The notes below the pieces were generated by a model. The model worked only from the letters and a program-made list of their open reading frames with translations, was not told the DNA's origin and did no database searches. Source: Candidatus Babeliales bacterium (GTDB lineage: Bacteria > Babelota > Babeliae > Babelales > JACPOV01). Taken from it: a stretch of DNA of 64,000 nucleotides. The position numbers and the translations under genes are program-made. This document shows positions 9,567 through 56,921 of the stretch, piece after piece (the first letter of the stretch is position 1; each line of letters opens with the position of its first letter). The stretch is taken from assembly GCA_049692255.1 (NCBI GenBank), contig JBAVOR010000031.1, positions 21,744 through 85,743 of the forward strand, written 5' to 3'.

Positions 9567-9653
9567 CTGGTGCCGGAGACCGGACTCGAACCGATACAGT
9601 GTTACCACCGCAAGCACCTGAAGCTTGTGCGTCTGCCAATTTCGCCACTCCGG
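9567..9653 (-). tRNA. tRNA-Leu (anticodon CAG), CCA encoded
   Basis: Reverse complement GCCGGAGTGGCGAAATTGGCAGACGCACAAGCTTCAGGTGCTTGCGGTGGTAACACTGTATCGGTTCGAGTCCGGTCTCCGGCACCA. 7-bp acceptor stem, anticodon loop TTCAGGT, long variable arm, TTCGAGT T-loop. Confidence 0.9.
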
Positions 9654-9786
9654 CAATTGAAAAAAATCACGAGGATACTAGTGTAAAGCCTTATTGAATC
9701 AATTGCAACTCATAATTTGGTCGGCATATGCGCTCCACCAGGCAAAGCATCGTCGATGCCTAACGGTTATGCCGGACTAAAGATTA

Positions 9787-19450: not shown

Positions 19451-20149
19451 CTAGTCGTTACGCTTGTTGCCACCCAGTAAACGGAGCAAGAATAGAAACA
19501 AGTTAATAAAATCGAGATACAGGGTTAGCGCCCCGAGCAATGACGCCTTTTGTTCAATATCGCCACCGGCATAAAACGTTTGACCAATCTGTTTTAACTT
19601 TTGATTGTCATAGGCAATTAATACCGTAAATATCCCTACTCCAATGAGCGAGATAATATAATCAAGCCCGGCACTTTTCATAAAAATGTTGACGAGCATG
19701 GCAATCAAAATTCCCCAGACTGCCATTTGTGCAACTGACCCTGCAGCAGTCAGATCTGCCTTAGTAAAATACCCATACAGCGCCATTGCGGTAAACATTA
19801 CTGTCGTAATGCTAAACGCCAACACAATCGCTTCAAGGCGATACACATAAAAAATAGAAGAAAGTGTTAACCCGGTCAAAATTGCATAAGCAATAAATAT
19901 AGATACGGCAGTCGCAAAGCTCATGCGAGTAATAAGCCCTGCTAATGCAAATACGAGTAATAGTTGTGCACCCATGAGCACAAATGGAATGATTGAACCA
20001 CGAAACAAATAGTTAAATAAGCTTGGGTTGTTAAATACATACAGAGATGTCGCAGCGGTTAATGCTAGTCCAGCTGCCATCCAGCCATAGACTTTATACA
20101 TAAATTGCCGCGTTGCCTCAACTAAGTTGTATTGTGCATATTGGTTCAT
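19451..20149 (-). CDS. BAX-inhibitor-1 / YccA-family membrane protein
   Basis: ORF 19451..20212; likely start is ATG 20149 (MNQYAQYN...). 7 TM helices. FMYKVYGWMAAGLALTA N-terminus and charged C-terminal tail LLRLLGGNKRND, typical of BI-1/YbhL/YccA. Confidence 0.8.
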   Translation of the reverse strand: MNQYAQYNLVEATRQFMYKVYGWMAAGLALTAATSLYVFNNPSLFNYLFRGSIIPFVLMGAQLLLVFALAGLITRMSFATAVSIFIAYAILTGLTLSSIFYVYRLEAIVLAFSITTVMFTAMALYGYFTKADLTAAGSVAQMAVWGILIAMLVNIFMKSAGLDYIISLIGVGIFTVLIAYDNQKLKQIGQTFYAGGDIEQKASLLGALTLYLDFINLFLFLLRLLGGNKRND

Positions 20150-20346
20150 AATAACCCTTTCGAAAGTTTGAAATATGGAACCTTTTTTACTCTTTGTTTT
20201 TAAGGATAACAAAAATTAATTTTTTTTTCTATTGCTGCCATTTTAATGTATATTTTGCAAAATGAGCAAACTATTGCACATAGGAGCTTACCTCAGTAGG
20301 CTGGCTATATTAAGCGAATATTTTGCGCTCTTAAAAGGAGAAACGT

Positions 20347-28399: not shown

Positions 28400-29041
28400 A
28401 TGCATTTTTCTGAACATCTTCCCCTTTTCTTGCAAAAAAAAGCAGATCCAAATGTTCAAACTAAAGAAGGCGTGCCACTAACGGTAGCAATAGATGCAGG
28501 CCACACAGCAACAATCTTGCATTTATTAGAAGCTGGGGCAAATCCCAATGCGTATGTTGATCAAAATTATAGTAAAGTTATTACTCCATTAAACGAAGCT
28601 ATACGCAAGGGTGAACTCGATATCGTAAAGTTATTGTTGCAATTTGGCGCGAACCCTAATATGGGTTACTCTTGCTTAGCAGAGACCACATCGCCTTTAC
28701 TTACAGCAGTAAGAAATAAAATTGGAATTAGAATGCGCGATAACGATAAGCCAATTGTCGCTTCATTGTTGCGGCATGGTGCATATCCCTATGAGGTCAA
28801 TGGGATCAATGTTTTGTCTGTAATGAAACAAGAATATTTCGATAAATATAGTATCCCGGAAGAAAAAAACCGCATTGCATATAAAAAAATTGCGCGCGTT
28901 TTTGTACAATACGCTGGTGTTAAGCGCGCACTATCGGGGGAATTTATAGATCAACAAAAGCGACTGCCCGCAGAAATTATTGCGATGATTATGCCATTTG
29001 TTGGAATCAACTTAGCAAGCGAGTTAGAAGCTAATACTTAG
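28400..29041 (+). CDS. Ankyrin-repeat protein, 5'-truncated paralog of 29718..30608, with F-box/PRANC-like C-terminal tail
   Basis: ANK repeats (G.TPL..A...G....V..LL..GA.PN pattern, e.g. VPLTVAIDAGHTATILHLLEAGANPN). The frame is open upstream to 28217 and still homologous to the paralog (KLSDLSHL vs KLDDLSGL), but has no start codon or signal peptide there. Tail RLPAEIIAMIMPFVGINLASELEANT. Confidence 0.65.
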   Translation: MHFSEHLPLFLQKKADPNVQTKEGVPLTVAIDAGHTATILHLLEAGANPNAYVDQNYSKVITPLNEAIRKGELDIVKLLLQFGANPNMGYSCLAETTSPLLTAVRNKIGIRMRDNDKPIVASLLRHGAYPYEVNGINVLSVMKQEYFDKYSIPEEKNRIAYKKIARVFVQYAGVKRALSGEFIDQQKRLPAEIIAMIMPFVGINLASELEANT

Positions 29042-29717: not shown

Positions 29718-30608
29718 ATGACCCATAAAAAATTGTTCGTTTTACTGTTTCTGGGAGCATTTGCATCTGTAAACTGCGGAACTCCTAACAATACCACTCA
29801 GCCGCCAGAAGGTTCTGCGAATTTTGATCATCTTTTTGCGAACTGGCAGCCAATGAGCGAACCATACGGACATTATCTCGCATCCACCCACCCTTCACCT
29901 GTATACCTAGACCTAGGCTCTTGGTTTGAGGGCATACATCATACTTCTACCGCGACCGACTTCGACCACCTCTATTCCCATATTCAACGTGTGGGCAGTA
30001 AGATTGAAAATCTTCTGAAATTAGATGACTTATCAGGCCTTGAAAAAGATTCTCCGCTCCTTGATTATCAGCTTTACAACTCTTTCCCCAACAAACTTCC
30101 CCTTCTCTTGGAAAAAAAGGCGAATCCTAATGTACAAGGTTGTGTAGGAAACGTCCCACTAGCAGAGGCAATAAACGCCAATAACAGAGAAGCGGTAATA
30201 ATGTTGCTTAAAGCAGGTGCTAACCCAAACGTGGTACACAAATCCATATTTAAAACCACCACTCCTCTAATAAAGACTATCGATCTAGGTATGATTATTT
30301 TATTTAATTCCGAAAAATCCTCGCTTGTTGCAGCCTTACTACGATATGGTGCAGATCCATTGATCAACAATAGCGTAGGGCAAAATGCTCTAGCAATAAT
30401 GAAAGAAAATTACACAGATATACAACCGCAAAAGCGTCATGCTGAATATAAAAAAATTGCGCGCGTTTTTGTACAATACGCTGGTGTTAAGCGCGCACTA
30501 TCGGGGGAATTTATAGATCAACAAATGCGACTGCCCGCAGAAATTATTGCGATGATTATGCCATTTGTTGGAATCAACTTAGCAAGCGAGTTAGAAGCTA
30601 ATACTTAG
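29718..30608 (+). CDS. Secreted/lipoprotein-like ankyrin-repeat protein with F-box/PRANC-like C-terminal tail
   Basis: 296 aa. Signal peptide MTHKKLFVLLFLGAFASVNC (Cys at the cleavage region). ANK repeats (VPLAEAINANNREAVIMLLKAGANPN). The last 54 codons are nearly identical at the DNA level to 28879..29041. Confidence 0.75.
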   Translation: MTHKKLFVLLFLGAFASVNCGTPNNTTQPPEGSANFDHLFANWQPMSEPYGHYLASTHPSPVYLDLGSWFEGIHHTSTATDFDHLYSHIQRVGSKIENLLKLDDLSGLEKDSPLLDYQLYNSFPNKLPLLLEKKANPNVQGCVGNVPLAEAINANNREAVIMLLKAGANPNVVHKSIFKTTTPLIKTIDLGMIILFNSEKSSLVAALLRYGADPLINNSVGQNALAIMKENYTDIQPQKRHAEYKKIARVFVQYAGVKRALSGEFIDQQMRLPAEIIAMIMPFVGINLASELEANT

Positions 30609-34009: not shown

Positions 34010-34297
34010 CTAATCAAATTGTTTACGTGCGTATTCATGTAGTAATTCAAAATCCCCTCGTATCAGTGCTTCTTTTTTTTTACGACTCCATTTTTTAAGT
34101 TTACGTTCTAATTCAAATGCTTCATCACGAGTATTGCAATTATATGAAAAAACGAGCATTATCGGCAATCGGTGCGATGTATATCCACTAAATATACGTT
34201 GCTCGTGTTGAGATAGACGAATTCCGATATTATCGGTGTGTCCTACATAGTAAGAATCATCAGAACATCTGAGAATATACACAGTAAAATTATTCAT
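34010..34297 (-). CDS. Small stand-alone GIY-YIG nuclease-family protein
   Basis: 95 aa. FTVYILRCSDDSYYVGHTDNIGIRLSQHE ... NTRDEAFELERKLKKW gives the GIY/YVG, R and E core of the GIY-YIG fold. Confidence 0.8.
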   Translation of the reverse strand: MNNFTVYILRCSDDSYYVGHTDNIGIRLSQHEQRIFSGYTSHRLPIMLVFSYNCNTRDEAFELERKLKKWSRKKKEALIRGDFELLHEYARKQFD

Positions 34298-36327: not shown

Positions 36328-37257
36328 ATGATGAAAAATATATCTAAAAAATTAATTTTGGCTCTCGCCTGCATAGGCGCGCTCCAGCCATTCACCACCC
36401 AAGCAGGGTATTTCTCAACAGAACATCTGCCTACGTGGTTGTCGTATGACAAGATATCAACAATGGCGAATGAACAGTATCAAAACATACAAACCCAGAT
36501 CGCCAATAGTGGTATTACTTGGAAAACTACCGGTATAGCTGTTGCGCTGGGGTTAGGGTACTACACATACAAAAATGCTGGTCCCTACGTTAATCTTACT
36601 AAATATACTGAAAAACCAGCATTCATGAGCTCACCAGCAATAATGATTAATGCAGGATTGGATTTTGTTGAAGGTATGGGCAAATTAATAACAGATGCAC
36701 CATCATACACCGTTGATGGCATAGCGTATCTGCATAACAAATTATATACACAGCCACGCATCGAAAAACAGATTATGGATCTCAACTGGAATAATCCATC
36801 TGGCCTGTTTGAGCATACTAGCGATCCCTTGAAACCTATATTACCTTCTATCTTAACGCAAAAACATTTTGCGTTAATAAAAGAAATGAAAGACTTATTT
36901 GTTATTATTGATAACTGCCTCCTTAAATTCTGCAGCCCAATTTCACGCTCATATCAATCAGATGGAATATTCAACACAGATAACATACAGATAAAAGCAA
37001 ATGTCACTTCAACGAATAGTACAGCGTTTGATGAAAAGACGAATCCGTTGATTAAAAGCTTACAAAAAGCTGCACCAGTCTTAAAAACATCACCGGACAC
37101 ACTCGAGTTTATACTCATTAATGAAATAAAAGGGCGAATTAAGCTCATTGAAACCGAAATAAATAAAAAATACTTGAACCATGATGTCCTTCAGGATTGC
37201 GCAAATCGCCTAAAAGCAGCTAAAAATGTGCTTGATCCCGAGATAAAGTTGCCATAA
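36328..37257 (+). CDS. Secreted/membrane-anchored protein (hypothetical)
   Basis: 309 aa. GGAG RBS. Signal peptide MMKNISKKLILALACIGALQPFTTQA. Gly-zipper TM WKTTGIAVALGLGYYTYK. Confidence 0.65.
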   Translation: MMKNISKKLILALACIGALQPFTTQAGYFSTEHLPTWLSYDKISTMANEQYQNIQTQIANSGITWKTTGIAVALGLGYYTYKNAGPYVNLTKYTEKPAFMSSPAIMINAGLDFVEGMGKLITDAPSYTVDGIAYLHNKLYTQPRIEKQIMDLNWNNPSGLFEHTSDPLKPILPSILTQKHFALIKEMKDLFVIIDNCLLKFCSPISRSYQSDGIFNTDNIQIKANVTSTNSTAFDEKTNPLIKSLQKAAPVLKTSPDTLEFILINEIKGRIKLIETEINKKYLNHDVLQDCANRLKAAKNVLDPEIKLP

Positions 37258-37338
37258 TAGCACCCTTGATTGCAACTTGAAATCAATGCGTTACAATTAA
37301 GCTATTATTAATATAAACAACTATAATTTGAGCATCTC

Positions 37339-37803
37339 ATGAATACAAAATTAATTTCTCTTCGTATCATCGCTTTCCTCTCTCTAACAGTACCCGCCCT
37401 ATGCCCCATTGCACGCGGCATGGAGCAAGGGACTGGAAACAGCATCAGCAAAGCCTTGGCACAAAAAGCATTGTACGCACCAAAGTTGATCGCAACGAAA
37501 ATGTATGAACACCCGTGGTACACCTTCTTTGGAGCATCAACCCTTCTTACAGCAGGGTATATTGGTCTATTTGTATACAGAGAAATTAAAGGGGTTCGCG
37601 CAATTGCCCGCAAAGGCCAACAACAAGAAACAATAAGTACTCCTCAAAGCAACAATGCATCAAACCTACTCAATCAACTGTTGCAGCCTTCAAAAAAGCT
37701 TATTACCCTAACCGATCTCCAAAAAGCTTTAGATCAACTGCAAGAACAAAAGATAAAAGACAGCTACAAAAAAAGAGAATTTATTAAAGCAGAAATAGCC
37801 TAA
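37339..37803 (+). CDS. Secreted/membrane-anchored protein (hypothetical)
   Basis: 154 aa. Signal peptide MNTKLISLRIIAFLSLTVPALCPIARG. TM FFGASTLLTAGYIGLFVYREIK. Helical tail. Confidence 0.6.
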   Translation: MNTKLISLRIIAFLSLTVPALCPIARGMEQGTGNSISKALAQKALYAPKLIATKMYEHPWYTFFGASTLLTAGYIGLFVYREIKGVRAIARKGQQQETISTPQSNNASNLLNQLLQPSKKLITLTDLQKALDQLQEQKIKDSYKKREFIKAEIA

Positions 37804-38209
37804 ATTTATCGATAAATTCATAATCTATTTACAATCAGAATAACAATCCGCTGCGCTAATAGATCAGAATAACCTTCCCGAAAAGCTCCTTACGTACATT
37901 ATTCAAAACGCCACAAAAGAAATAATACAATGCCTGCGGAAAGGGGATTTTGCTGCTGCAGAAAATTGGAAAAAAATGTACGTGAATGCACAAATACTCG
38001 TCAATCACCAGGAAGTTCTCTAGTAATAGCCCAAAACACATCAAAATGCCCCAAATTCCTCATTTTACCCCCCATAGAACCCCTAGATTTTAAATCTAGC
38101 CAAGGCCCCGCTAAGGGCTAAAACTCCTCATTTTATACCCTTAAAAACACCCTGAACCCGAGCGCCTGCGGCAAACCATGAAAAAAAGCCGTAAAACAAG
38201 GGGGAATCT

Positions 38210-38237
38210 TGACAAAAAAGCAAAAATCTTTACAATT
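38210..38237 (+). promoter_or_regulatory. Sigma70-like promoter for 38279..39910
   Basis: TTGACA - 16 nt - TACAAT, about 40 nt upstream of ATG 38279. Confidence 0.5.
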
Positions 38238-38278
38238 AGAATAAAGTGTATATTGAAATTATTATGGAGATCAAGATT

Positions 38279-39910
38279 ATGAATACACAATTAATGGCTA
38301 AAAAAATCACTACTATAACTGCTCTAGTTTTATTGGGTATGCACCAAGCGCAAGCCGTGCAAAACCCAAGATGGCTTGAAGGCTTAAGTCCAAGCCTTCA
38401 ACTCGAAAAAATTAAAAATTTCCCTACAGATTTCGGTCATTTTGCTGCCAAAACAACAGCCAATACCTCCTTTGAATCTGCTGGTAAATACGTTGAAAAA
38501 AATCCAGGAAAAGTTCTTGGTGTTACAGCAGCAACGGGACTAACAGGATTCGGCTTATACCGCGCGTGGTATGGCTTAAAATCATACGTTGCAGATAGAA
38601 TAGAAAAAAAGTTATCATTTATTAGAGTAACATCACCTGAAAGTTTTTATCAAGCACCCACCGCATCTACTGATTCTATAGACCATCGCTATACAGGTAG
38701 TAGCAGTAACTCAGATGAACAAGTTAACATCAACAACAATAGTGCACCTACTCATGATGTTTCACAAGCACCCATAAGCAAAAAGCGCGCAAAAAAAGCC
38801 CTAAAAGCCGTTATAGGAAATCTTTTAGCGCACATCCAGCAACTTCCGGAAAAAGAATTAGCTGAACTACTGGCGTTCGCTACAAACGCCAATGACAATA
38901 GCAACGATTCAAATAATAACACAGCGTCAATTTCAGGATCATTCAACGCGAATGACAATAGCGGTAATTACAATGTTGTAGATATGGAAGTTGATAATGG
39001 AAGTGCTGACGAACATAGGAAGCTAAAAGAAAAAAATATAATAGGATATCGTGGCACAAGAAGCAATACATCTAGACAAAAATTCTTTAACCAAAATAAT
39101 ACAGAAGAATCTAAAGAAGAAGTAGAAGAAGACTTTGTTGAGGTCGTTACAAAAGATGACATCGTTCCGTTTCCCGAGAATCAGGAAGATAAAAGACAAT
39201 CAATACTGCAAACAGGCAGAATTGTTGATAATAAGTTGAGTATCAACCATCATAACAATATTATTTCTCATCCTTTACAAGATACTGACGCAAGTTCACC
39301 ACTTAATCAGACCAAAACAGAACATAGTACTAATTCTGCAAAAGATTGGTGGAATCCGGCTGGAATTTTCACTCAGTTGCCATTGAGTACTGATTCACTA
39401 AAACTCGATAATGGGCAACTATCTTATCTTAAAAACTTGCTTGCGCGATGCGATCAAGAATTAAAGCAATACATGGATACCGCATCTGTCCCTGATAATA
39501 TGGAAAAATCTGTCACCAACAAGTTTGATTTTAAAAAAGAGCATGAAAAGAATTTTGATCCAACAAATCCCTTAGAGTTGACTTTCTTAGAGTCAGAATT
39601 TAATCAATTTAAAAACAATATCGGTGAATTTATTCTCCAGAACGCGCAAACACAAAAGTCAGCTTTGCAATTCATTGAAAAACATTGCAGAAACCGCTTG
39701 GTTACCATAGAAGCTATTAAAAATCATTTTGGAGATTCTTTAGGCAGCGCGGCTAATTCTGACGAACATAATTCAATCAACAGGCTATTGAAAATAGAAA
39801 GATCATTATCTGAACTTGCAACAAGTTGCTCAAAATTGATAAAACCACCTGTAGCGAAACAGAACTTGTTCTCTCAATTCTTGGCATTCTTTACTCGTAA
39901 CAAAAAATAG
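38279..39910 (+). CDS. Secreted/membrane-anchored N/S/D-rich protein (hypothetical)
   Basis: ORF 38246..39910. ATG 38279 is preceded by GGAGA. Signal peptide MNTQLMAKKITTITALVLLGMHQAQA. TM LGVTAATGLTGFGLYRAWY. Asn-rich low-complexity region NDNSNDSNNNTASISGSFNANDNSGNYN. Confidence 0.7.
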   Translation: MNTQLMAKKITTITALVLLGMHQAQAVQNPRWLEGLSPSLQLEKIKNFPTDFGHFAAKTTANTSFESAGKYVEKNPGKVLGVTAATGLTGFGLYRAWYGLKSYVADRIEKKLSFIRVTSPESFYQAPTASTDSIDHRYTGSSSNSDEQVNINNNSAPTHDVSQAPISKKRAKKALKAVIGNLLAHIQQLPEKELAELLAFATNANDNSNDSNNNTASISGSFNANDNSGNYNVVDMEVDNGSADEHRKLKEKNIIGYRGTRSNTSRQKFFNQNNTEESKEEVEEDFVEVVTKDDIVPFPENQEDKRQSILQTGRIVDNKLSINHHNNIISHPLQDTDASSPLNQTKTEHSTNSAKDWWNPAGIFTQLPLSTDSLKLDNGQLSYLKNLLARCDQELKQYMDTASVPDNMEKSVTNKFDFKKEHEKNFDPTNPLELTFLESEFNQFKNNIGEFILQNAQTQKSALQFIEKHCRNRLVTIEAIKNHFGDSLGSAANSDEHNSINRLLKIERSLSELATSCSKLIKPPVAKQNLFSQFLAFFTRNKK

Positions 39911-42272: not shown

Positions 42273-43772
42273 ATGAAGAAAGTGGCACTCATTCTGCTAG
42301 TCACCGCATCTGTATTTGCCGATGAACATTATTTCCCCCTCGGTCGCCCGCTCTTTTTTGCACCAGCAAAAGATCGTCGCCAGGAAGCTACTGGTCAATC
42401 ATTTATGTTCACCCGCCCTATTCATGACAATATTGCGGCAAAATATGCATCGTTTTGGCATGAAGCATTATGGGAAAAACAGGGTTGTTGGGGCTTCAGC
42501 GTGCAGATTGTTCCTCTGTACCAAAAAAATATGGCTAACAGCAGCAATGCACGATACTTTTTTATTGATCATACTGACACCCTTACCATTCGCGGTGACG
42601 CTATTTCAGAAAACCCAAACGTGCGCATGATACGCGCTGAATGGCTCAATCTGCCCAGTAACTTTTTTGGCACCCTCCGCATTGCTCCGCATCAACACCA
42701 GTTTGGCATTTGGGTTGAAGCGAGCCAAGATATTAAAACGTTTATTAACCACCCGTTCTTAGACAATATTTGGGTAGCGGTGGCATTTCCATTTCAAACG
42801 GCAACTACTAATTTAAAGCCAAAATCGATTACATTTCAAACAGAAGAGAACGTGTTTCCTTCAACTCCAATAGAAGCGTTTAATCGGGGGAATATGATCT
42901 TTGGCAAAATCAAAGAAGATCACAGCAGCCGCTCAGGTATTTGCGAAGTCCATTTTCGTTTAGGTACCACGTTTGTGGCCCGTGATGGCTTTGTTGCGGG
43001 ACTGTATAGTTCAATTATTGCACCCACCTTTAATCCTCAACGCGCTGAATATATGTTTAGTCCGTTTTTGGGCCATAATGGGCACTGGGGCTTAGGTGCT
43101 GGCGCTTACCTTCAATTACCATTAAATATTGATACAGAAGATAAGTTGATGAGCTTCTTTTTGGAGATCGATAACCAATATCTCTTACGTAATTTTCAAT
43201 GGCGCACGTTTGATCTCGTGCAAAAACCGTTTAGCCGATATCTCCTGTTAAACAAAAATGATGGCACTACCAACATCCCTGCCGTGAACATATTTACCCA
43301 ACGAGTCAAAGTACAACCATTCAATTTTGTTGATATGGCGGTCGGTTTCCGCTTTAACTGGCACCGCTACGAAGCAGAGATTGCGTATAACTTATGGGCA
43401 CATGGCGATGAATATCTTTCACTCAAACACCATTTTGAGCCAGAATATGGCATCCAAGGTAATGGCGCTTTAATTCCTGGCACCAACATTGGTGTAACGG
43501 CGAGCCATAGTACCATTAGTACTCTTGCACCCAATGATACTGATTTTTTTGGTAATCCTATTTTTGTGCCAATTCATGAATATGATTTTGATTTTATTAC
43601 CGCAAGTGCCCGCGGTGCAGTGGCGCACCGCGCTAGCTTTGCATTTGGCTTTATTCACGACCAATGTAGCTTTGCCCTGTTTGCAGGGCTTGGTGCATTT
43701 GCAGAACTTTCGCAACGCAACACCGCATTAAATAACTGGGGAATCTGGGGCAAGGCAGGAGGAACGTTTTAA
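42273..43772 (+). CDS. Putative outer-membrane beta-barrel protein
   Basis: 499 aa. Signal peptide MKKVALILLVTASVFA. Alternating aromatic/Gly-rich strands. C-terminus ...WGKAGGTF ends in the terminal Phe typical of OMPs. Confidence 0.6.
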   Translation: MKKVALILLVTASVFADEHYFPLGRPLFFAPAKDRRQEATGQSFMFTRPIHDNIAAKYASFWHEALWEKQGCWGFSVQIVPLYQKNMANSSNARYFFIDHTDTLTIRGDAISENPNVRMIRAEWLNLPSNFFGTLRIAPHQHQFGIWVEASQDIKTFINHPFLDNIWVAVAFPFQTATTNLKPKSITFQTEENVFPSTPIEAFNRGNMIFGKIKEDHSSRSGICEVHFRLGTTFVARDGFVAGLYSSIIAPTFNPQRAEYMFSPFLGHNGHWGLGAGAYLQLPLNIDTEDKLMSFFLEIDNQYLLRNFQWRTFDLVQKPFSRYLLLNKNDGTTNIPAVNIFTQRVKVQPFNFVDMAVGFRFNWHRYEAEIAYNLWAHGDEYLSLKHHFEPEYGIQGNGALIPGTNIGVTASHSTISTLAPNDTDFFGNPIFVPIHEYDFDFITASARGAVAHRASFAFGFIHDQCSFALFAGLGAFAELSQRNTALNNWGIWGKAGGTF

Positions 43773-43820
43773 ATAACGAAAAACGCGCCACGCATTTTTC
43801 GTGAAAATGGAATACAGGCA

Positions 43821-43898
43821 GCGCTCATGCCTTTAGTGTTCGCCAAAGGCTGCGACGTGTCCCGCTATGGCATTGCAGCGGCAGAAGGACATGAGCGC
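43821..43898. repeat. Family-B-related palindromic element, copy B6 (78 bp, divergent core)
   Basis: gcgctcatgcc...ggcagaaggacatgagcgc. Shares the GCGCTCATG / CATGAGCGC termini. Confidence 0.6.
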
Positions 43899-43925
43899 AA
43901 TAATTAATAAAATTGGGAGTAACTA

Positions 43926-45212
43926 ATGAATAAGAATTTTTTGAAAATACTATCACTTGTGCTCATACAGTGCTATGGCACACAACTTGATGCATTTTCT
44001 TTTTTTAGAGGAACAACGGATTTACCAGAAGCAACAATTTCAGATGCATCAAAAAATCTTACTCGAGCACTCATTCCAAAATATCCATGGCAAAAGGTTG
44101 ATGACAATAAAGTAACCACTGCACAAACAAATTTTACCACTGCAGCACAATCCAATCCTCAACGAGCTGGTGGTGCACTTAAAGTACTTGTAGATAAATA
44201 CCAAGAAGAAGGCATCAAGAATGCCGATGATGCAGCAAAATTGAATATGTTATACGAAGTGTTATTAGATACAAAACCTAACGCGAACAGTCAAAAAACG
44301 TATCGTGAATTAATACAAAACATAATAGACGAAAAACCCTATTATTCAGAAATGGACGCAATTAATGCGCTTCTGAAGAATCCATTACATGATGCAAGTA
44401 AATCGATATCTGGCAATTACATAGATAAACCACACACCAGTGGGGACTATTTGTTGAATGCGCGGATGCTACTCGATGCGCCTGAGGTCGATTCATTGCT
44501 GGCAAAGGCCCACTATCAAAGACCGTCATGGTTTGAAGAGTACCGTGATGCAAAGCTCACAACATATGCACCAGAATCAAAAGCACAATCGCTAGCACCA
44601 AAACTATCAGTGTCTGCAGAAACAGTTCCGTTAACATCTGCGAACTTTGAACCAGCAATTGTGCAAAAAGTATCGTCATCGGACATCGATATTGAGATGT
44701 TGCCTCAGGCAGAAGAACAAGTACCGCCAGTGCCAATAGTGGCACCTCAAGAATCAGCAGTATCGCAACAAAAAACAGCTGCCATTTTTGACCCATCATT
44801 ACAATTACCCAAAGCGACAGAGCTTGCACAACAGCCTGAACGATTCGCACAGCTCAATACATTATTGAATGCAGGGCTAAAAGAATATGCAGATGAAATA
44901 GAGACTTATGAGAAAGAGCTAGAGCAAAGAGCCAAAGTAGAAGCGCAAAAAAAGAGAAAAAAAATAACACAGGATATTACGTATAATGAGATATTAAAAG
45001 AGCTGATTAGCAAAAGCGTAACAGCAGAAGGCAGGCTATTAAAAGCAATAGGTGATAAAACGAAATTGAACCAACCCACAGAAGCAGACAGAAACCAACT
45101 CAAAAAACAAGAACAAAAAACACAAGAACTAAGACGTCTTTTTCGAGTCTTAGATTTATTAGAAAGGGCATCGGATCAAAATAAGACATTGACGGTCACA
45201 ATCGATATATAA
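43926..45212 (+). CDS. Secreted helical protein (hypothetical)
   Basis: 428 aa. GGGAG RBS. Signal peptide MNKNFLKILSLVLIQCYGTQLDA. C-terminal K/E/Q-rich coiled coil. Confidence 0.65.
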   Translation: MNKNFLKILSLVLIQCYGTQLDAFSFFRGTTDLPEATISDASKNLTRALIPKYPWQKVDDNKVTTAQTNFTTAAQSNPQRAGGALKVLVDKYQEEGIKNADDAAKLNMLYEVLLDTKPNANSQKTYRELIQNIIDEKPYYSEMDAINALLKNPLHDASKSISGNYIDKPHTSGDYLLNARMLLDAPEVDSLLAKAHYQRPSWFEEYRDAKLTTYAPESKAQSLAPKLSVSAETVPLTSANFEPAIVQKVSSSDIDIEMLPQAEEQVPPVPIVAPQESAVSQQKTAAIFDPSLQLPKATELAQQPERFAQLNTLLNAGLKEYADEIETYEKELEQRAKVEAQKKRKKITQDITYNEILKELISKSVTAEGRLLKAIGDKTKLNQPTEADRNQLKKQEQKTQELRRLFRVLDLLERASDQNKTLTVTIDI

Positions 45213-45238
45213 ATATACGTAACTTCACTGTCACCACA

Positions 45239-45604
45239 ATGTACGAAGAAGCTAAAAGACAATGGCAACCAACTGAACAAGAAACGCAAGAACGAATAAA
45301 CAAATCTACTGATTGGAAATCGTATTACCTGAGAAATGTTGTTGATATCGCAGCCACCTGCGGTATTGCGTATGCTTGCTACCACAAATGGTTCAAGCGA
45401 TAGGGGATTCATAAAACATGGCTCCTCTATTACCAGCAAAATAATATCCACACCATCGATGAAATAAAAGCATGTCAATCAACCATTAGTGAGGTGCGTG
45501 CTCGTATAGGCATTGATTGGCACAATGTTATTGACGGCGTTACCGTAGGCAGCATCTTAGCAGGCGCGAGTTATTACTGTTACCATACATGGCTTGATGA
45601 CTAA
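45239..45604 (+). pseudogene. Small ORF interrupted by an in-frame TAG (54 codons + TAG + 66 codons); internally duplicated TM motif
   Basis: Manual translation gives MYEEAKRQWQPTEQETQERINKSTDWKSYYLRNVVDIAATCGIAYACYHKWFKR*GIHKTWLLYYQQNNIHTIDEIKACQSTISEVRARIGIDWHNVIDGVTVGSILAGASYYCYHTWLDD*. TAG at 45401..45403. Not in the ORF track because both halves are under 60 aa. Confidence 0.4.
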
Positions 45605-45690
45605 AATAACCCATATTATTGCTTTTTTGTCGCAAATATATACTATAAGAATATATTTGTATATTTTTTTACTATAGGTATTACCTCCAT

Positions 45691-46890
45691 ATGAACACTC
45701 ATAAAATCTATCTTTTTGCATTACTTGCTGTTCTTGCTTCTATGCCCATTATCATATTTGGTAGTGAGGAGGCTAAAGAAACAGTTCTCGTGCTCTGCGA
45801 CCAAATAACATCTGGCAACGCATTCAGTACTTGTGAAAAAAATGGCATAACAGACAATAGGCCTACCAATATACTACAACGAGATAATACAAGAATTCAG
45901 TCGATTGCCAATGAATTGCACAGGAAAGTAACCGACTATAATGATAAAATGGTCATTGATAACTGCAACGTGCAGTATCTTTGTCTCAACGAAACATCGC
46001 TTGGTCAGGCAAGTGATGTAAATCAACTCAGCACCTATATAAACACAATGGATGCACCCAAGGGCATTATTCTTGTTGCTGTGGGCGCACAGGCTAGTAC
46101 TGCAGTCAATTATTTGGCCACTGTGCCAAACTCAATTGGTAAAGATAAATTGCTTAGAGGTTTTGTTGCTATAAACCCCCTGCTAAACCCCAATGAAGCA
46201 ACATTTCATTGGATTGCTAACCTTGGTACCGCCAATCAAAAAAGAGCATCTTATATACCATTTTCGCGACTCTTTGCACCATTAATGGCTACTCGTACTA
46301 ACGGTGCTCGTTCTTATAATCCCTGGTTTGGTCTTAATCCACTCGCATCCGCAAAAAAATTGCCTAAGGATGCGTCAATAATGATTATTCAAACAACCGA
46401 TAACCCCATTACTCCCGCAAACCAAGGTTGGCAATTGTATCAAGCATTGCCCGAAGGTAATAAAAGTATCATTGAACTTAATAGCAATGTAAATGCGTTT
46501 CCTATTCAAAACCACACGTACACACAGTTAGAAAAATTTAGAATAGGCAAAGACACAGAAGAAAAAACACAAAAAGGTAGCGCCGTTAATAGAAACGAGC
46601 AAAAAAAACAATTGCAACGTTTAATTGTAGAAGAACAACAAGCATCTTATGAGGCGCTGCAAAAGTTTTTTATTGACAATGAATTACTGAACCATACAGC
46701 ACCGCAAAACTCAAATACGCAATCTTCCATTGACACGCAACCTAAATCCGATTTTACTCAAAAAAAGATTAATTTTTATCGCAGTCTTCCATGGCGCAGC
46801 AACTGGACACGTAATATTATCGACGGCGCCACTGCCTGCGGCATTCTAGCAAGCGTGAGTTATTTGATATACAAAAAAACACGCGCATAA
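45691..46890 (+). CDS. Secreted protein with C-terminal TM anchor (hypothetical)
   Basis: 399 aa. Signal peptide MNTHKIYLFALLAVLASMPIIIFG. C-terminal WTRNIIDGATACGILASVSYLIYKKTRA. Confidence 0.65.
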   Translation: MNTHKIYLFALLAVLASMPIIIFGSEEAKETVLVLCDQITSGNAFSTCEKNGITDNRPTNILQRDNTRIQSIANELHRKVTDYNDKMVIDNCNVQYLCLNETSLGQASDVNQLSTYINTMDAPKGIILVAVGAQASTAVNYLATVPNSIGKDKLLRGFVAINPLLNPNEATFHWIANLGTANQKRASYIPFSRLFAPLMATRTNGARSYNPWFGLNPLASAKKLPKDASIMIIQTTDNPITPANQGWQLYQALPEGNKSIIELNSNVNAFPIQNHTYTQLEKFRIGKDTEEKTQKGSAVNRNEQKKQLQRLIVEEQQASYEALQKFFIDNELLNHTAPQNSNTQSSIDTQPKSDFTQKKINFYRSLPWRSNWTRNIIDGATACGILASVSYLIYKKTRA

Positions 46891-46959: not shown

Positions 46960-47703
46960 ATGGCACATTGGATTATATGTGTTGCTGCTTGCGCTTGTTA
47001 CCAATACATTCCTGCCCACGCATTAGAACAAGCATTACAAAAAACAACAGAAACATTTACTGCATTAACTGATAGTTTAAAAAAGCAATCAACCCCTAGT
47101 AATACCACTACCATTGCTGATCTACGTATACCGTTGAATGGATGCACCATATACATTCAAGATGGTAATATCACAACAATTAAAGCCGATGCTATTGTTA
47201 ATGCCGCCAATCAATCATTAATGAAACACCCTGCAGGTGTTGCTGGAGCCATCTGGAACGCCGCCGGTGCCGATAAAATTAATGCAGCAATAGAACAAGG
47301 GAAAAAAAGTAAAAAGATTCCTGAAAGCCTTGAAATAGGTGAAGTAGTAGTAACTGATGCATTTGATTTAAATGCCCATGGGGTTAAACGTATTCTGCAC
47401 ACTCCAGGCCCGAATTGCACTAGTGGTCAAGATATCAACTTATTATATGCATGTTACCAAAACTGTTTATTAAAAGCAGATGAATTAATGTTAACCTCTA
47501 TCGCATTTCCCGCAATGAGTATTGGTATTTTTGGATGTGATAGAGTCAAGTGTGCAAACTTAGTTGCACAGGCTCTGTATAACACTACGGGTAGATTAAA
47601 ACACGTAAAAGATATTTATCTACTCATTAGCACCAATTTAAATGATGACAATGCAAAGCCGTATAAATATGCGTTGGTGCAGGCGCTGAAACAACGGCTC
47701 TGA
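46960..47703 (+). CDS. Macro-domain (ADP-ribose binding/hydrolase) protein with N-terminal signal peptide
   Basis: 247 aa. AAGGAG RBS. N-terminus MAHWIICVAACACYQYIPAHA. Macro motifs ADAIVNAANQSL...GVAGAIWNAAG, ILHTPGPN and SIAFPAMSIGIFG. Confidence 0.8.
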   Translation: MAHWIICVAACACYQYIPAHALEQALQKTTETFTALTDSLKKQSTPSNTTTIADLRIPLNGCTIYIQDGNITTIKADAIVNAANQSLMKHPAGVAGAIWNAAGADKINAAIEQGKKSKKIPESLEIGEVVVTDAFDLNAHGVKRILHTPGPNCTSGQDINLLYACYQNCLLKADELMLTSIAFPAMSIGIFGCDRVKCANLVAQALYNTTGRLKHVKDIYLLISTNLNDDNAKPYKYALVQALKQRL

Positions 47704-48980: not shown

Positions 48981-50941
<1,961 letters not shown>

Positions 50942-52356: not shown

Positions 52357-54063
52357 TCACCAAACAGAATTGTAAAAAGGACAAGTGAGATCAACTCTAT
52401 TATTTTTTACTGGATAATTTTTTGCAATCAAAGAGCCAATATAGGTTTTGTCGTTAGTATTTACTAAGCTGTTATAAATAGGGGCCATGGTGCTACCATA
52501 TTCGATTGATAAAGAGTTTCCGTTTCGCTCACGATTCAAACATAATAATGCTTGTGGAACCGTATTTATGGTCGGCTTTTTGACACATATTAATCCAGCA
52601 ATAAGACCTACGGCGATATAATCACCGTCGGGACTAAATGAAACACAACGAACACAATTACCCGTATAAACATCATCAGTTTCATCAAAGGTGAAGACGC
52701 ATTGCTGCGAAGAGATATCAAAAACTTTCATTATTCCATCACATGAACGAGAAGCAATAAATTGGCCATCAGGACTGAAACAGACATCGTAAGTACAATT
52801 AGCATGGCAAGCACAATTAGTATGGCCCTCATCCTTTGCATCAAATGTATAAACACATTCCCTCGATGCTATATTAAAAACTCTTATTACCCCCTCACTA
52901 GAACCAGTAGCAATATACTTGCCATCGGGGCTAAAACAAATGCACAGAGCACCTGCATCAATACCATTGGATTCATCAAGTGTATGCATACACTGCTTTG
53001 ACGCGACGTCAAAAAACTTTATTGAATTACCAAATGAGCAAGCAATAAATTTACTGTTGAGGTCGAAACAAACATCCGCAATACGGCCGATTTGATCGAA
53101 TGTATGAACGCACTGTTTCAATGCTACATCAAAAATTTTTATCGACTGATCAGAAGAACCGGAAATAATACGTTTACCATCAGGGCTAAAACAAATGCTA
53201 TTGACACGCTCCAGATGACCGTCACTTCCCCTATAAAATGTACTAATACATTCCCCAGAACCCGCATTAAAAATACTTACTGTGCCAATATTAGAGCCAT
53301 AAGCAACAAGCCTTTGGTCATCGGGACCCCAGTAGATGCACTGAACACAATCAGCAATATCAGCATTAGCCTTATAAAAGGTATACACACATTGCTCGGA
53401 CGAGATATCAAAAAAATCTATTGACCCATCGTATGAACCCACAGCAATATGTCGCCCATTAGGGCTAAAACAAATGCTTGCAGCCCGATAACAAGCATCG
53501 GGGGTAAAGACATGAGCATCAAACCAAATATCATTTCCCATTTTTCGCGCTACAACTTTTTCTTGGTCTGGGTTTAATTCAAATTCTTTTGAGATTGCAC
53601 TAGGCTTTTCTATAAATAGCTTGATAGTTTCCGGTGATTTAAGACGGCTAGCAATCTCGCCTAATACGGGATCCTCAAGCTCTTTACAATTCAAAAATGT
53701 AGCAACGTATGCAATCTTTTTGAGAGCACCATTATTATTCATTTTTATATCTGGTCTGACATCCTGTTTAAAAACCAACTTTTTAAGTAAAGGATGTATA
53801 TGTGCTTGCCAGTCTACATGCGAAAGCATTGGAGTAATAGGCAATGGTTGTTCACCAAAATCTGAACGCATTTCTTTTAAGGTTGTACACAAATCAACGA
53901 ACTCAACTGGTACCGTAACCGTACGATAACTGGTCAGCTTTGTTTGGTCATACAATTGCAAGCGAACCGGCACCGATGGTGCAATTGGTACCTCAATCTG
54001 CTCCATGCCTTTCATAAGAGTTGATGAAAATATAATTGCGATATGCAGATAAAGACATTTCAT
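52357..54063 (-). CDS. Skp1-like domain + WD40 beta-propeller fusion protein (paralog A)
   Basis: 568 aa. AGAGGA RBS. Hydrophobic N-terminus MKCLYLHIAIIFSSTLMKG. Residues about 25-175 align by eye with eukaryotic Skp1 (VEFVDLCTTLKEMRSDFG...PLPI vs VEIAKQSVTIKTMLEDLG...PLPN; ALKKIAYVATFLNCKELEDPVLGEIASRLKSPETIKLF vs [40 protein letters not shown]). Then at least 6 WD40 blades with FSPDG...GS.D..I..FD repeats. Confidence 0.7.
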   Translation of the reverse strand: MKCLYLHIAIIFSSTLMKGMEQIEVPIAPSVPVRLQLYDQTKLTSYRTVTVPVEFVDLCTTLKEMRSDFGEQPLPITPMLSHVDWQAHIHPLLKKLVFKQDVRPDIKMNNNGALKKIAYVATFLNCKELEDPVLGEIASRLKSPETIKLFIEKPSAISKEFELNPDQEKVVARKMGNDIWFDAHVFTPDACYRAASICFSPNGRHIAVGSYDGSIDFFDISSEQCVYTFYKANADIADCVQCIYWGPDDQRLVAYGSNIGTVSIFNAGSGECISTFYRGSDGHLERVNSICFSPDGKRIISGSSDQSIKIFDVALKQCVHTFDQIGRIADVCFDLNSKFIACSFGNSIKFFDVASKQCMHTLDESNGIDAGALCICFSPDGKYIATGSSEGVIRVFNIASRECVYTFDAKDEGHTNCACHANCTYDVCFSPDGQFIASRSCDGIMKVFDISSQQCVFTFDETDDVYTGNCVRCVSFSPDGDYIAVGLIAGLICVKKPTINTVPQALLCLNRERNGNSLSIEYGSTMAPIYNSLVNTNDKTYIGSLIAKNYPVKNNRVDLTCPFYNSVW

Positions 54064-54154
54064 AAAGTCCTCTTATGTCATTTATAAAAATGAGATGACT
54101 GTGCAGTTTTTACTGCAACTGATTATGTAGAAGCGTTGACTAAGTTACAAGAAA

Positions 54155-54481
54155 TTATTTCTTGCCATTCATAAAAAGATATACGCCAGTCGCTATACCA
54201 GTAAATCCAGCCACGCGAATTAACTGCGTTGATGTCCATTGTTCTCGGACTTGCAAAGGATACAAAGGGCGTTCCGGCTCTGCTCTTACAGTATTAGCCG
54301 CCATGTTATATGTATCATTACACAAACCTGCAATATGCGGTGCCCATACAAATGCAAAAGCCCCTCCAGCATACAATGCAAAAGCAGCTTTTTTATTTTC
54401 CGTGAACCCATCAAACAGACCCGCCTGTGCACTATTGGTGATCGTTACTATAGCTACTAGAGCTGATAATGTTTTAATCAT
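54155..54481 (-). CDS. Small signal-peptide + 2-TM membrane protein (family member 4; candidate immunity-like partner of the EndoU-like gene)
   Basis: 108 aa. SP MIKTLSALVAIVTITNSAQA, TM AAFALYAGGAFAFVWAPHIAG, loop, TM LIRVAGFTGIATGVYLF and a GKK tail. Lies immediately downstream of 54552..55073. Confidence 0.55.
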   Translation of the reverse strand: MIKTLSALVAIVTITNSAQAGLFDGFTENKKAAFALYAGGAFAFVWAPHIAGLCNDTYNMAANTVRAEPERPLYPLQVREQWTSTQLIRVAGFTGIATGVYLFMNGKK

Positions 54482-54551
54482 ATTTTTTTCTTACGGGTAA
54501 AAATAATTATAGTGATTAATACAGTATGAATAGATAATACCAGAAGCATGA

Positions 54552-55073
54552 TTACACAACAATAGGATACGCGGTTTTAATCTGCTGCTGATGAATAACA
54601 ATTACCGCCTGCTCTCCATTTGCCATAACACCAACCAAGCGCCAGCCATCTTGCAGAGAAACTATTTCTGTCACATGATCAAGCACATGAATAATCTGGT
54701 CAATTACTTCGTGCGCTGAAAAATTAACGGGAAAAAAAGTAGATCGCTTGCACTGATTATTATAATACCACTCTGCTTGCCAACTTTTATTATAAGAAGG
54801 TGCTTTAATAATAGCATTAATACGCTCAGGAACAATCAAGTGAGAATGCAGACCTACGAGCGCTTCTTTACCTTGTTTACCGCAGAAGATGTGTGGAATG
54901 TTTATTGATCGAGGCACTGAGATTGCATATGCCATACTACTTTTTGCTATTGCAATTTTACTTGCCAATCGAGTATGTGCATAACTTTGCAACGCATGCA
55001 ATGCCACATCAACGCTACTGCGCGCATGAGTGAGACAAGAAAAAAAGAGTAAAAAGACACCTAGTTTTTGCAT
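54552..55073 (-). CDS. Secreted bacterial EndoU-like nuclease-domain protein (tentative)
   Basis: 173 aa. Signal peptide MQKLGVFLLFFSCLTHA. HIFCGKQGKEALVGLHS, KRSTFFPVNFSAHEVIDQIIHV and C-terminal IKTAYP match my recollection of the bacterial EndoU toxin pattern (HIL.G....GGH, K..FP..WS...I...I, I.TAYP). Confidence 0.5.
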   Translation of the reverse strand: MQKLGVFLLFFSCLTHARSSVDVALHALQSYAHTRLASKIAIAKSSMAYAISVPRSINIPHIFCGKQGKEALVGLHSHLIVPERINAIIKAPSYNKSWQAEWYYNNQCKRSTFFPVNFSAHEVIDQIIHVLDHVTEIVSLQDGWRLVGVMANGEQAVIVIHQQQIKTAYPIVV

Positions 55074-55137
55074 GATTACTAAACTTATAAATTAAAATAA
55101 TTGATATTTAACTACTAATAAGTATATCAAAATATTT

Positions 55138-55255
55138 CTAATATGCCAATTCGCGAACCATGCCTATAATCGTCTCTGCATCAATACCCGCCCAATGCAG
55201 CAACTCTTCTGGTTTGCCAGACATTTGGTATCAATATTGCAATGCAGCAGCAACA
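55138..55255 (-). pseudogene. Fragment copy of the 3' end of tkt
   Basis: 55168..55223 is near-identical to 57039..57095. It would read MSGKPEELLHWAGIDAETI..., versus MSGKPEELLRWAGIDAETI in tkt. Homology continues, degraded, to a TAG at 55138 and upstream to about 55255, where a TGA interrupts. Confidence 0.75.
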
Positions 55256-55286
55256 TCACTCTAGACGTGGACACAAGAAAAAACAT

Positions 55287-56921
55287 TTAAAACAATGAAC
55301 CGATATACTCTTTAGTGTCACCATCTGAAATGCTGGTATAAACACGTGCCAGATCTGTACCACGTTTAATTTCCAGTCGCTGGCCATCTTTCTCGCGGCT
55401 CAACAGCAAAAGCGCTTGTTCAATAGTATTAGTTTCGGTTGGTTTTTTATAAAGCTCTATTGAACCATCAGCAAACCCAGATACTAAATACTGGCCATCA
55501 GGGCTGAAATTACATCCATAATTCACCGGCAGTATCTTTATCAATTGCCGCGACAATAGACCAAATATTCTCAGCGACCCATCGCGCGCGCGCGAAATAA
55601 TCTCTTTACCGTTAGGGCCAAAACGTACTTCAACGATATCTTCAATAGAACCACCATTATTTTCATCAATGGTATGAACGCATTGCTGTTTTGCAATATC
55701 AAACAGCTTTATCATTCTCTCATCTGCCGCAAGAATATATTTACCGTCAGGGCTCACACACACTGTATGAATGGTATCAAAAGAACCAACGTAGCTCGGT
55801 TTGACATACCCACCATTTCGTTGATCAAAGGTGCCCAGACGCTCTTTTGTCGAAGCATCAAATATTTCGATTGATTTATCGTTGATAGCAGAAATAAGAT
55901 ATTTGCCATCAGCACTAAAACAAATGGCGCTAATTGACTCGAGATAGCCCCCATGATTTTTTTGATCAAATATATCGTACTGTTTTTTCAACAGATCAAA
56001 ATTACGCAAGGTGCCGCTTGTACTAAAAACAAGATAGTTGCTGTCAGGGCTAAAAAAGAATGCATCTATATCATTCACTTCGGCAACTCGTTGCTTTGTC
56101 GATACATCAAAAACCTTCATTGACCCATTTAATACCTTGGCAGCAATATAGTTGTTGTTGGGGCTTATGCGAACTACCATAATTTCGTTTTCCCAAATGC
56201 GGGGAGTATTTTCGTTCAGATCAAAGGTATGAATGCAGCTTCTCGAACTCATATCAAAAAAATTTATTAACTTATCCTGTGATCCAGAAACAAGATATTT
56301 ACCATCAGCGCTAAAATTGACGCTGTAAATTGCCGCATTCTTACGACCATTGTTTTGATCAAACGTATGCGCACAAAACCAAGTATGGTTTATCATTTTT
56401 CGAGCGACGGTGCGCTCCTGAGCTACGCTTAGTCCAAATTCTTTTGAGATTACATCCGGTTTTTCTTTAAATTGCTTGATCGTGTTGGGGGATTTAAAAC
56501 GCCTGACAATATCATCTAGCACTGGATCTTCAAGACCTTTACAATTCAAAAATGTAGCAACGAGTGCAATTTTTTTAAGATCATCATTATCATGCGTTTG
56601 TATATCTTGTCTGATATCCTGCTTGCAAATAAGCTTATTGAGTAAAGGATGTATATGCTTCTGCCAGTCGGCGTATGAAAGAACCGTTGGGGTAATCGGC
56701 AATGGTTCTTCACCAAAATCTGAACGCATATCTTTTAACGTTGTACACAAATCAACGAATTCACCTGGTACCATTACCGTACGATAACCGGTGAGCTTTG
56801 TTTGATCATACAATTGCAAGCGAATCGGCACCGATGGGGCAAATGGGACCTCGATCTGCTGCATGCCATTCATAAGCATTGACGATACTGTAGCAGTCAC
56901 AAACAAATATATGCTTTTCAT
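55287..56921 (-). CDS. Skp1-like domain + WD40 beta-propeller fusion protein (paralog B)
   Basis: ORF 55287..56987. ATG 56921 is preceded by AGGGAG. The N-terminal 170 aa are highly similar to paralog A (IRLQLYDQTKLTGYRTVMVPGEFVDLCTTLKDMRSDFGEEPLPITP). WD40 blades (FSADGKYLVSGSQDKLINFFD and others). Confidence 0.7.
   Translation of the reverse strand: MKSIYLFVTATVSSMLMNGMQQIEVPFAPSVPIRLQLYDQTKLTGYRTVMVPGEFVDLCTTLKDMRSDFGEEPLPITPTVLSYADWQKHIHPLLNKLICKQDIRQDIQTHDNDDLKKIALVATFLNCKGLEDPVLDDIVRRFKSPNTIKQFKEKPDVISKEFGLSVAQERTVARKMINHTWFCAHTFDQNNGRKNAAIYSVNFSADGKYLVSGSQDKLINFFDMSSRSCIHTFDLNENTPRIWENEIMVVRISPNNNYIAAKVLNGSMKVFDVSTKQRVAEVNDIDAFFFSPDSNYLVFSTSGTLRNFDLLKKQYDIFDQKNHGGYLESISAICFSADGKYLISAINDKSIEIFDASTKERLGTFDQRNGGYVKPSYVGSFDTIHTVCVSPDGKYILAADERMIKLFDIAKQQCVHTIDENNGGSIEDIVEVRFGPNGKEIISRARDGSLRIFGLLSRQLIKILPVNYGCNFSPDGQYLVSGFADGSIELYKKPTETNTIEQALLLLSREKDGQRLEIKRGTDLARVYTSISDGDTKEYIGSLF

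Follow-up and report, generated by a model that had tools for sequence, protein, structure and literature searches.

Paralogous bacterial proteins joining a Skp1-like module to a WD40 propeller in a Dependentiae-like genome

In a stretch of 64,000 nucleotides from a Candidatus Babeliales bacterium (contig JBAVOR010000031.1), hereafter the window, we found two paralogous genes, A and B. Each encodes a hydrophobic leader, an N-terminal module (N-module) with profile-level homology to the eukaryotic ubiquitin ligase adaptor Skp1, a seven-blade WD40 propeller and a conserved C-terminal tail (Table 1). Both genes are under purifying selection, and their family counts three members, from two organisms, among about 15 billion proteins. 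We propose that the products of A and B are exported, effector-like, one-piece substrate receptors of the SCF (Skp1-cullin-F-box) type, which would dock on a host cullin. We hold this reading tentatively, as plausible and somewhat short of probable.

Both start codons were preceded, 5–6 nt upstream, by a Shine-Dalgarno sequence: AAGAGGA before the ATG of gene A at 54063 and AAGGGAG before the ATG of gene B at 56921. The mechanical open reading frame (ORF) of gene B extends beyond this ATG, to 56987, and the placement of the ribosome-binding site makes 56921 the preferable start. With the starts of both genes fixed in this way, the hydrophobic leaders MKCLYLHIAIIFSSTLMKG (A) and MKSIYLFVTATVSSMLMNG (B) are part of the proteins. 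Their mean Kyte-Doolittle hydropathy was 1.81 in A (residues 3–17) and 1.59 in B. The initial annotation, made from the sequence by eye, had given the same coordinates and starts and had called the two proteins paralogs with hydrophobic leaders. All of this was borne out, the ORFs being present on the reverse strand with a ribosome-binding site before each ATG, and the paralogy being supported by BLASTP (E=3e-141, 40% identity overall). By part, the identity was 72% for the N-module (~167 amino acids, aa), 37% for the propeller and 48% for the tail, of which ~50 aa are conserved. No third copy was found when the 64-kb window was searched.

The WD40 propeller, also part of the initial annotation, was confirmed. 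PF00400 matched A with 131.6 bits and B with 104 bits, the cut-off being 27 (E-values in Table 1). Six repeats were found by the PF00400 hidden Markov model (HMM), whereas seven FSPDG-type blades could be counted in each of the two sequences. With multiple repeats above the curated cut-off and a closed propeller, A and B both belong to the WD40 beta-propellers. The closest solved structures, all strong matches in the PDB, were a Nostoc WD40 protein (2ymu), WDR5, Apaf-1, PkwA and Fbw7. Gene B also matched a PD40-type repeat.

Table 1 Genes A and B, their parts, and other genes of the window discussed in the text.
Feature	Position	Strand	Description
Gene A (P0001)	52357..54063	-	568 aa; leader, Skp1-like module, seven-blade WD40 propeller and conserved tail
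Gene A leader	54007..54063	-	aa 1-19, MKCLYLHIAIIFSSTLMKG; putative Sec signal or signal anchor
Gene A Skp1-like N-module	53506..54006	-	aa 20-186; from three-sequence profile against PDB and hhalign
Gene A WD40 propeller	52588..53496	-	aa ~190-492, seven blades; PF00400 E=4.8e-39
Gene A C-terminal tail	52360..52587	-	aa 493-568; common to three family members; dN/dS 0.28
Gene B (P0002)	55287..56921	-	544 aa; paralog of A with the same four parts
Gene B leader	56865..56921	-	aa 1-19, MKSIYLFVTATVSSMLMNG; hydrophobic, putative signal
Gene B Skp1-like N-module	56361..56864	-	aa 20-187; 72% identity to gene A module
Gene B WD40 propeller	55458..56354	-	seven blades; ~37% identity to A; PF00400 E=2.5e-30
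Gene B C-terminal tail	55290..55457	-	aa 489-544; conserved with A and P0007
Hydrophobic gene between A and B	54155..54481	-	108 aa, no family match
EndoU gene between A and B	54552..55073	-	173 aa, signal-like N-terminus; bacterial EndoU PF14436 E=2.5e-8, above cut-off
Ankyrin-repeat protein 1	28400..29041	+	213 aa; ends ...RLPAEIIAMIMPFVGINLASELEANT; Ank Pfam matches
Ankyrin-repeat protein 2	29718..30608	+	296 aa, signal-like N-terminus; same tail

The third family member came from an exhaustive HMMER search, in which a profile of the two paralogs was run against 1.84 billion cluster representatives. Besides A and B, the search returned two proteins, P0006 and P0007, and it retrieved no Skp1 at E<=0.001. 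P0006 (993 aa, E=2.9e-7) was rejected, its score being an artefact of seven summed repeat matches; its hhalign probability was 4%. P0007 (548 aa, E=2e-5) had a related N-module, seven WD40 repeats and a similar tail. Its N-module was 32% identical to the window module (tblastn E=3e-12). P0007 comes from another sequencing run, in which its gene lies on a bacterial contig of 11 kb; its neighbours there are an FtsH-like AAA protein, RpiB, FtsX and PGK, a gene content of the kind found in reduced genomes. Upstream of P0007 there is an in-frame GTG, preceded by GGAAGG, which adds nine residues, MIKKLCIAL (contig L002, 6144..6170). The called start is probably too short, and the extended N-terminus, MIKKLCIALMLTFAANNYA, is probably a typical Sec signal. 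Counting P0007 from this upstream GTG, an N-terminal hydrophobic leader is found in all three family members.

Homologs of the N-module were also sought by word-indexed search, both with the module alone and with the three-sequence alignment, and none was found. Alignment scans with the N-module of genome representatives, viral contigs and metagenome contigs recovered no member, and tblastn of the family against 80 Dependentiae transketolase loci gave no match. In the 15-billion-protein collection, A and B were singletons, as were three out of four neighbouring proteins that were looked up. No description of a bacterial Skp1 homolog or of a Skp1-WD40 fusion effector was found in the literature. 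The rarity and novelty that the initial annotation had suspected thus hold, with three family proteins among the 1.84 billion representatives and a fusion undescribed in the literature found.

The likeness of the N-module to Skp1 exceeded chance in sequence comparisons, but only once P0007 was added. When a single window sequence was compared by phmmer with all PDB sequences, Skp1 ranked at the top with E=0.8. The two-paralog profile gave nine PDB matches, all of them Skp1 (best E=0.023), and with the three-sequence profile (A, B and P0007) Skp1 made up 22 of the 23 matches (best E=3e-4). For hhalign, a Skp1 alignment was built from 16 database sequences, retrieved with human SKP1 as the search query, which was 100% identical to database entries. 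The three-member family matched this alignment over 117 columns, with a probability of 87%, P=4.1e-6 and a score of 41.3. The controls scored 12.7 +/- 1.9 (60 column shuffles, maximum 19.1) and 13.5 (reversed alignment), the family score being ~15 standard deviations above the shuffles. At a permissive threshold, N-module residues 11–165 aligned end to end and collinearly with Skp1 1–163, over 137 columns; the identity in the hhalign alignment was ~27%. Homology to Skp1, collinear across both of its halves, is therefore statistically supported at the profile level, by the three-sequence profile and hhalign, and it rests on the profile of three sequences.

In the reciprocal direction, a narrow Skp1 HMM made from metazoan sequences only was run on 428 sequences, namely P0007 and 427 segments of the window, each reaching from stop to stop. 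P0007 came first (E=0.002), B second (E=1.1) and A fifth (E=5.5), and the register was correct in all three. The top Pfam family for the N-module of P0007 was Skp1_POZ (E=0.0054, 17.3 bits).

Several features of Skp1 were recognized in the family. The Skp1 signature TIKTMLEDLG (TIKxMxxDxG) was retained in register, in the family form T[LI]K[ED]M.[ST]D[FL]G, and the PLP strand was retained as well. AANYL of Skp1 helix H5 corresponded, in register, to [AS]TFL of the family (A-x-[FY]-L), and TPEEIRKTF to a PE-x-I-[KR]-x-x-F motif. W159 of Skp1 aligned with the C-terminal Trp of the two window proteins. The N-module lacks the two acidic loops of Skp1, which is why loop-deleted Skp1 crystallisation constructs scored best. 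Compared with Skp1, its first hairpin carries an insert of six residues and there is one additional short helix, and the latter makes the register of H7 ambiguous. For the PE.I..F-like motif, HMMER and hhalign picked different copies, giving a register ambiguity of eight residues.

The conserved tail of A, B and P0007 was assigned no fold via the PDB or Pfam. F-box and PRANC profiles (PF00646, PF12937, PF09372) were looked for, and no F-box family was found by Pfam at E<=10; there was also no F-box protein among the PDB matches of the tail profile. The idea that the tail is a cryptic F-box was unsupported in both Pfam and the PDB.

The BTB/POZ half of Skp1 binds Cul1, and its C-terminal helices hold the F-box of the substrate receptor, often an F-box/WD40 protein. 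In the family, the first propeller blade begins ~15 residues past the equivalent of H8, at the place occupied by the F-box protein's linker and propeller in the Skp1-beta-TrCP and Skp1-Cdc4 complexes. In the mechanism we propose, A and B would undergo Sec-dependent export and then be delivered into a protist host. There the Skp1-like module would bind a host cullin, of which Cul1 is the likeliest, and the propeller would bring a host protein in for ubiquitination. A single polypeptide would replace Skp1 plus its F-box/WD40 receptor, in logic like the BTB-Kelch proteins for Cul3, and the two paralogs, with their shared docking module and diverged propellers, would serve two different targets. 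A closed propeller begins and ends at adjoining points, and the tail therefore lies beside the N-terminal junction of the propeller. It is about F-box-sized and, hypothetically, could stand in for an F-box by packing against the Skp1-like helices and occupying the otherwise exposed F-box groove.

A bolder form of this proposal seems doubtful to us. It would make the family the first bacterial Skp1 mimic, a secreted single-chain SCF receptor on host Cul1 that works without an F-box. The tail would be an intramolecular F-box surrogate locking the propeller, and the paralogs would redirect the ligase to two substrates and might recruit the bacterium's own ankyrin proteins via their LPxEI tails (see below).

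Substitution rates between A and B were calculated after Nei-Gojobori, and dN/dS was ~0.3 in every domain. The dS values were 0.59 for the N-module, 1.9 for the propeller and 1.7 for the tail, the module having about one third of the value of the propeller. At the DNA level, A and B were 80% similar over 519 nt, from ~36 nt inside the gene to the module boundary. The lower dS of the N-module and a similarity ending at the module boundary point to a module that was homogenised, or re-used with another propeller, later than the propellers diverged. This event was not very recent, and the pattern fits an N-module that keeps one constant partner while each propeller has a ligand of its own. Recent gene conversion between A and B was unsupported, the N-module DNA being 80% identical and the longest exact run, which covers the VATFLNCK motif, only 26 nt long.

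The genome context of the pair is Dependentiae-like. The nearest relatives of the neighbouring fused transketolase (51–58% identity) were almost all from Dependentiae/TM6/Babeliales metagenome-assembled genomes. The window also encodes groES/groEL, rpe, tkt, an F-type protein of the type II secretion system, BamA and aminoacyl-tRNA synthetases, and a large share of its ORFs are orphans that begin with a signal-like N-terminus and match nothing in Pfam. Members of TM6/Dependentiae live as obligate parasites or symbionts of protists, and they encode WD40 proteins, F-box proteins and proteins of the leucine-rich repeat, tetratricopeptide repeat and ankyrin types, together with a conserved type II secretion system (PMC4776705). 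Signal peptides are found on 44% of the coding sequences of Chromulinavorax destructans, many putative ankyrin effectors included (PMC6561590). From these published genomes, a eukaryote-like protein with a Sec-type leader is a typical candidate host-directed form in the phylum.

A number of results weigh against a cullin-docking Skp1 mimic. In Pfam, the window N-modules alone had no Skp1, Skp1_POZ or BTB match at E<=10, and even P0007, with its 17.3 bits, stayed below the curated Skp1_POZ cut-off of 21.9 bits. None of A, B and P0007 reached the gathering scores of the Skp1 family (PF03931 Skp1_POZ plus PF01466 Skp1), and the A/B family is therefore not a bona fide member of this curated family. 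When only the two window paralogs were used, the hhalign probability was 4.9%, and the reciprocal Skp1 HMM was not significant for either A or B. The initial annotation had proposed a Skp1-like domain over both Skp1 halves. Its profile-profile part stood, the 87% lying above the bar of 50% set in advance, while its Pfam part did not, the scan of A and B for Skp1, Skp1_POZ and BTB being empty.

The predicted structures were weak. When the window N-module was modelled with AlphaFold2 on the alignment of the two paralogs, the pLDDT (predicted local distance difference test) was 42.6 and the model unusable; its order of elements, with two strands, a helix, the PLPITP-bearing loop and a run of helices, is compatible with Skp1. 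The N-module of P0007, modelled from the three-sequence alignment, reached a pLDDT of 64.4 (core blocks 70–81) and a predicted TM-score (pTM) of 0.55. With these models of low-to-moderate confidence, Foldseek gave no significant match (best E=0.36, TM 0.34–0.45). Ranks 1–11 of 350,542 PDB chains were nonetheless Skp1 or ASK1, and ranks 1–2 in the viral library (BFVD) went to Skp1 from Aureococcus anophagefferens virus and from Fadolivirus, though always with E of at least 0.36. For what such models can tell, this ranking points the same way as the sequence evidence. Outside the N-module, the -3/-1 positions of the predicted cleavage sites were non-canonical in A and B, a Sec-type leader directs a protein to the periplasm, and the window yielded no further SCF component and no further domain of the ubiquitin system.

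Two ankyrin-repeat genes of the window (Table 1) bear on possible partners of the module. Their 3' 235 nt were 95% identical and encoded the same ~50-aa tail. Ankyrin protein 1 lacks the signal-like N-terminus of protein 2 and may be 5'-truncated. The tail had been called F-box-like in the initial annotation, and no profile supported this: the two proteins matched only Ank families, and the tail alone had no F-box or PRANC match in Pfam and no solved F-box protein among its PDB matches. Its sole resemblance to the truncated poxvirus F-box (PMC2842262) was an LPxEI motif (RLPAEIIAMIMPFV...) in C-terminal position. Poxvirus ANK/PRANC proteins have a short C-terminal F-box without helix 3 (PMC2842262), and A039L of the chlorovirus PBCV-1, a viral Skp1, binds viral Anks via a C-terminal motif (PMC7019647). 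Orientia Anks bind SKP1 (PMC5957444). The window proteins resemble the poxvirus ANK/PRANC proteins, the Orientia Anks and the Skp1-binding chlorovirus Anks in layout, with repeats followed by a short C-terminal motif. The two ankyrin proteins are possible partners of the Skp1-like modules, and, since their layout has real precedents, a combined Skp1-like/ankyrin toolkit is a reasonable lead.

These ankyrin tails would have a more direct part if the module bound F-boxes and not a cullin. It could then sequester host F-box proteins and block the SCF ligase, or it could bridge to the LPxEI tails of the bacterium's own ankyrin proteins, in a two-receptor Ank plus WD40 complex like that of the chlorovirus vSkp1 and Anks. 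We find this unlikely. The alignment does include H5–H8 of Skp1, the F-box site; the two ankyrin proteins of the same window do end in RLPAEIIAMIMPFV...; and precedents exist in A039L with its Anks and in the short poxvirus F-box (PMC7019647, PMC2842262), and in the SKP1-binding Orientia Anks (PMC5957444). However, the ankyrin tail matched no F-box or PRANC in Pfam or the PDB, and the ankyrin genes lie 22 kb off, with no operon link. Moreover, confidence in the alignment is lowest for the C-terminal helices, where the eight-residue ambiguity lies, and the family-invariant motifs that match Skp1 are mostly in the BTB half (TIKxMxxDxG), plus H5 (TFL versus NYL).

BTB/POZ folds are general oligomerisation modules, and A and B might have a role apart from ubiquitin. 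As residents of the envelope (periplasm or surface), they would use the Skp1/BTB-like fold merely to oligomerise or to dock a WD40 scaffold. The Sec-type hydrophobic leader in all three members would suit such a role, as would the commonness of WD40 proteins in bacteria, the Nostoc protein as top PDB match of the propeller and the PD40-type repeat match in gene B. We rate this role as rather improbable, because the match is to Skp1 in particular, C-terminal extension included, rather than to a generic BTB, Elongin C or T1 domain. Furthermore, the family was found on two bacterial contigs only, one from the Dependentiae-like window genome and one with a reduced-genome-like gene content, and putative host-directed proteins of Dependentiae typically carry signal peptides (PMC6561590).

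The least probable explanation is that the N-module is a novel alpha/beta domain unrelated to Skp1, the likeness being convergent or due to chance; the empty Pfam scan of the window proteins, the 1.84-billion search without Skp1 at E<=0.001, the Foldseek results (E of at least 0.36, TM below 0.5) and the reciprocal HMM without significance for A and B would agree with it, but independent methods all picked Skp1 and nothing else, hhalign scored ~15 standard deviations above the shuffles, and the alignment was collinear over 137 columns with the Skp1 signature motifs in register.

Intracellular bacteria and viruses hijack cullin-RING ligases by receptor mimicry, with F-box, U-box, BTB-Kelch and ANK/PRANC proteins. 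To our knowledge, mimicry of the Skp1 adaptor has been described solely for giant viruses, and solely as a stand-alone protein. Eukaryotic Skp1 itself, with its 160 aa or so, stands alone. The N-module resembles it across the BTB/POZ half and helices H5–H8, but its divergence is great, with scores under the Pfam cut-offs, and it comes with a leader and in covalent fusion with a WD40 propeller. The F-box/WD40 receptors on Skp1 (beta-TrCP, Fbw7, Cdc4) likewise place a Skp1 fold beside a seven- or eight-blade propeller that offers substrates to the cullin. There, however, two proteins are linked via an F-box and a helical linker, whereas the family has no detectable F-box and its Skp1-like part and propeller form one chain, joined at the Skp1 C-terminus. 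The BTB-BACK-Kelch adaptors of Cul3, including the poxvirus BTB-Kelch proteins, follow the same logic of a cullin-docking module and a beta-propeller in one polypeptide. They differ in having a Cul3-type BTB in place of a Skp1-type module, and Kelch in place of WD40. As A and B had no Pfam match to BTB (PF00651), BACK or Kelch, the likeness is one of architecture and logic only.

Among parasites, A039L of PBCV-1 and the other giant-virus Skp1s are the closest parallel. Here too a protist parasite has a Skp1 homolog along with ankyrin proteins bearing a short C-terminal motif, as described for the chlorovirus (PMC7019647). The viral proteins stand alone and are near to cellular Skp1, whereas the family comes from bacteria, has diverged much further, and has its module fused to WD40 and preceded by a leader. 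Legionella AnkB and the Orientia Ank F-box proteins are likewise eukaryote-like proteins of intracellular bacteria, and they hijack host cullin-RING ligases (PMC2790608, PMC5957444). These effectors mimic the F-box receptor and need the host Skp1, whereas the family would mimic Skp1 and replace it.

Other genes of the window were also annotated. The EndoU gene and the hydrophobic gene, both between A and B (Table 1), could encode a secreted nuclease with a partner or immunity protein. A Macro domain protein (46960..47703, forward strand; PF01661, E=7e-25; ADP-ribose-binding or -hydrolase) has a hydrophobic N-terminus and is a candidate exported host-directed protein. An RPE65-family carotenoid oxygenase (17696..19357, forward strand, E=1.5e-97) is adjoined by a Bax inhibitor-1 family membrane protein (19451..20212, reverse strand, E=1.2e-50), both unexpected for so reduced a genome. 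Orphan ORFs of 150–550 aa with signal-like N-termini and no Pfam match, some of them Asn/Ser-rich and of low complexity, occupied 36328..39910 and 42273..46890. The lowest G + C content of the window was found in the 36–40 kb block (0.37 versus about 0.42). Two ORFs of 80 and 95 aa (14473..14715, forward strand; 34010..34297, reverse strand) started GIY-YIG-like, with YVYIIRS...YVGHT and YILRCSDDSYYVGHT, as judged by eye only. Five tRNA genes (Leu-CAG, Leu-CAA, Ser-GCT, Arg-ACG and Ser-TGA) lay among short ORFs at 9568..14887. GroEL (48981..50630, reverse strand) had an unusual GHGHGH before the usual GGM repeats, and its exact sequence was absent from the protein collection, in which the sequences of its neighbours were present.

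The Skp1-WD40 family is best filed as a case of cullin-RING ligase component mimicry by intracellular parasites, new in form, and its architecture would surprise specialists. Its extreme rarity and its divergence from all cellular Skp1 raise the question of its origin. If our reading is true, the Skp1-WD40 fusion would wire the SCF ligase in a new way, showing that the F-box step can be bypassed, and would offer a compact natural scaffold of the type wanted for engineering targeted degradation. For the Dependentiae, a widespread and almost uncharacterised phylum of protist parasites, it would also mean a concrete and testable mechanism of host manipulation.

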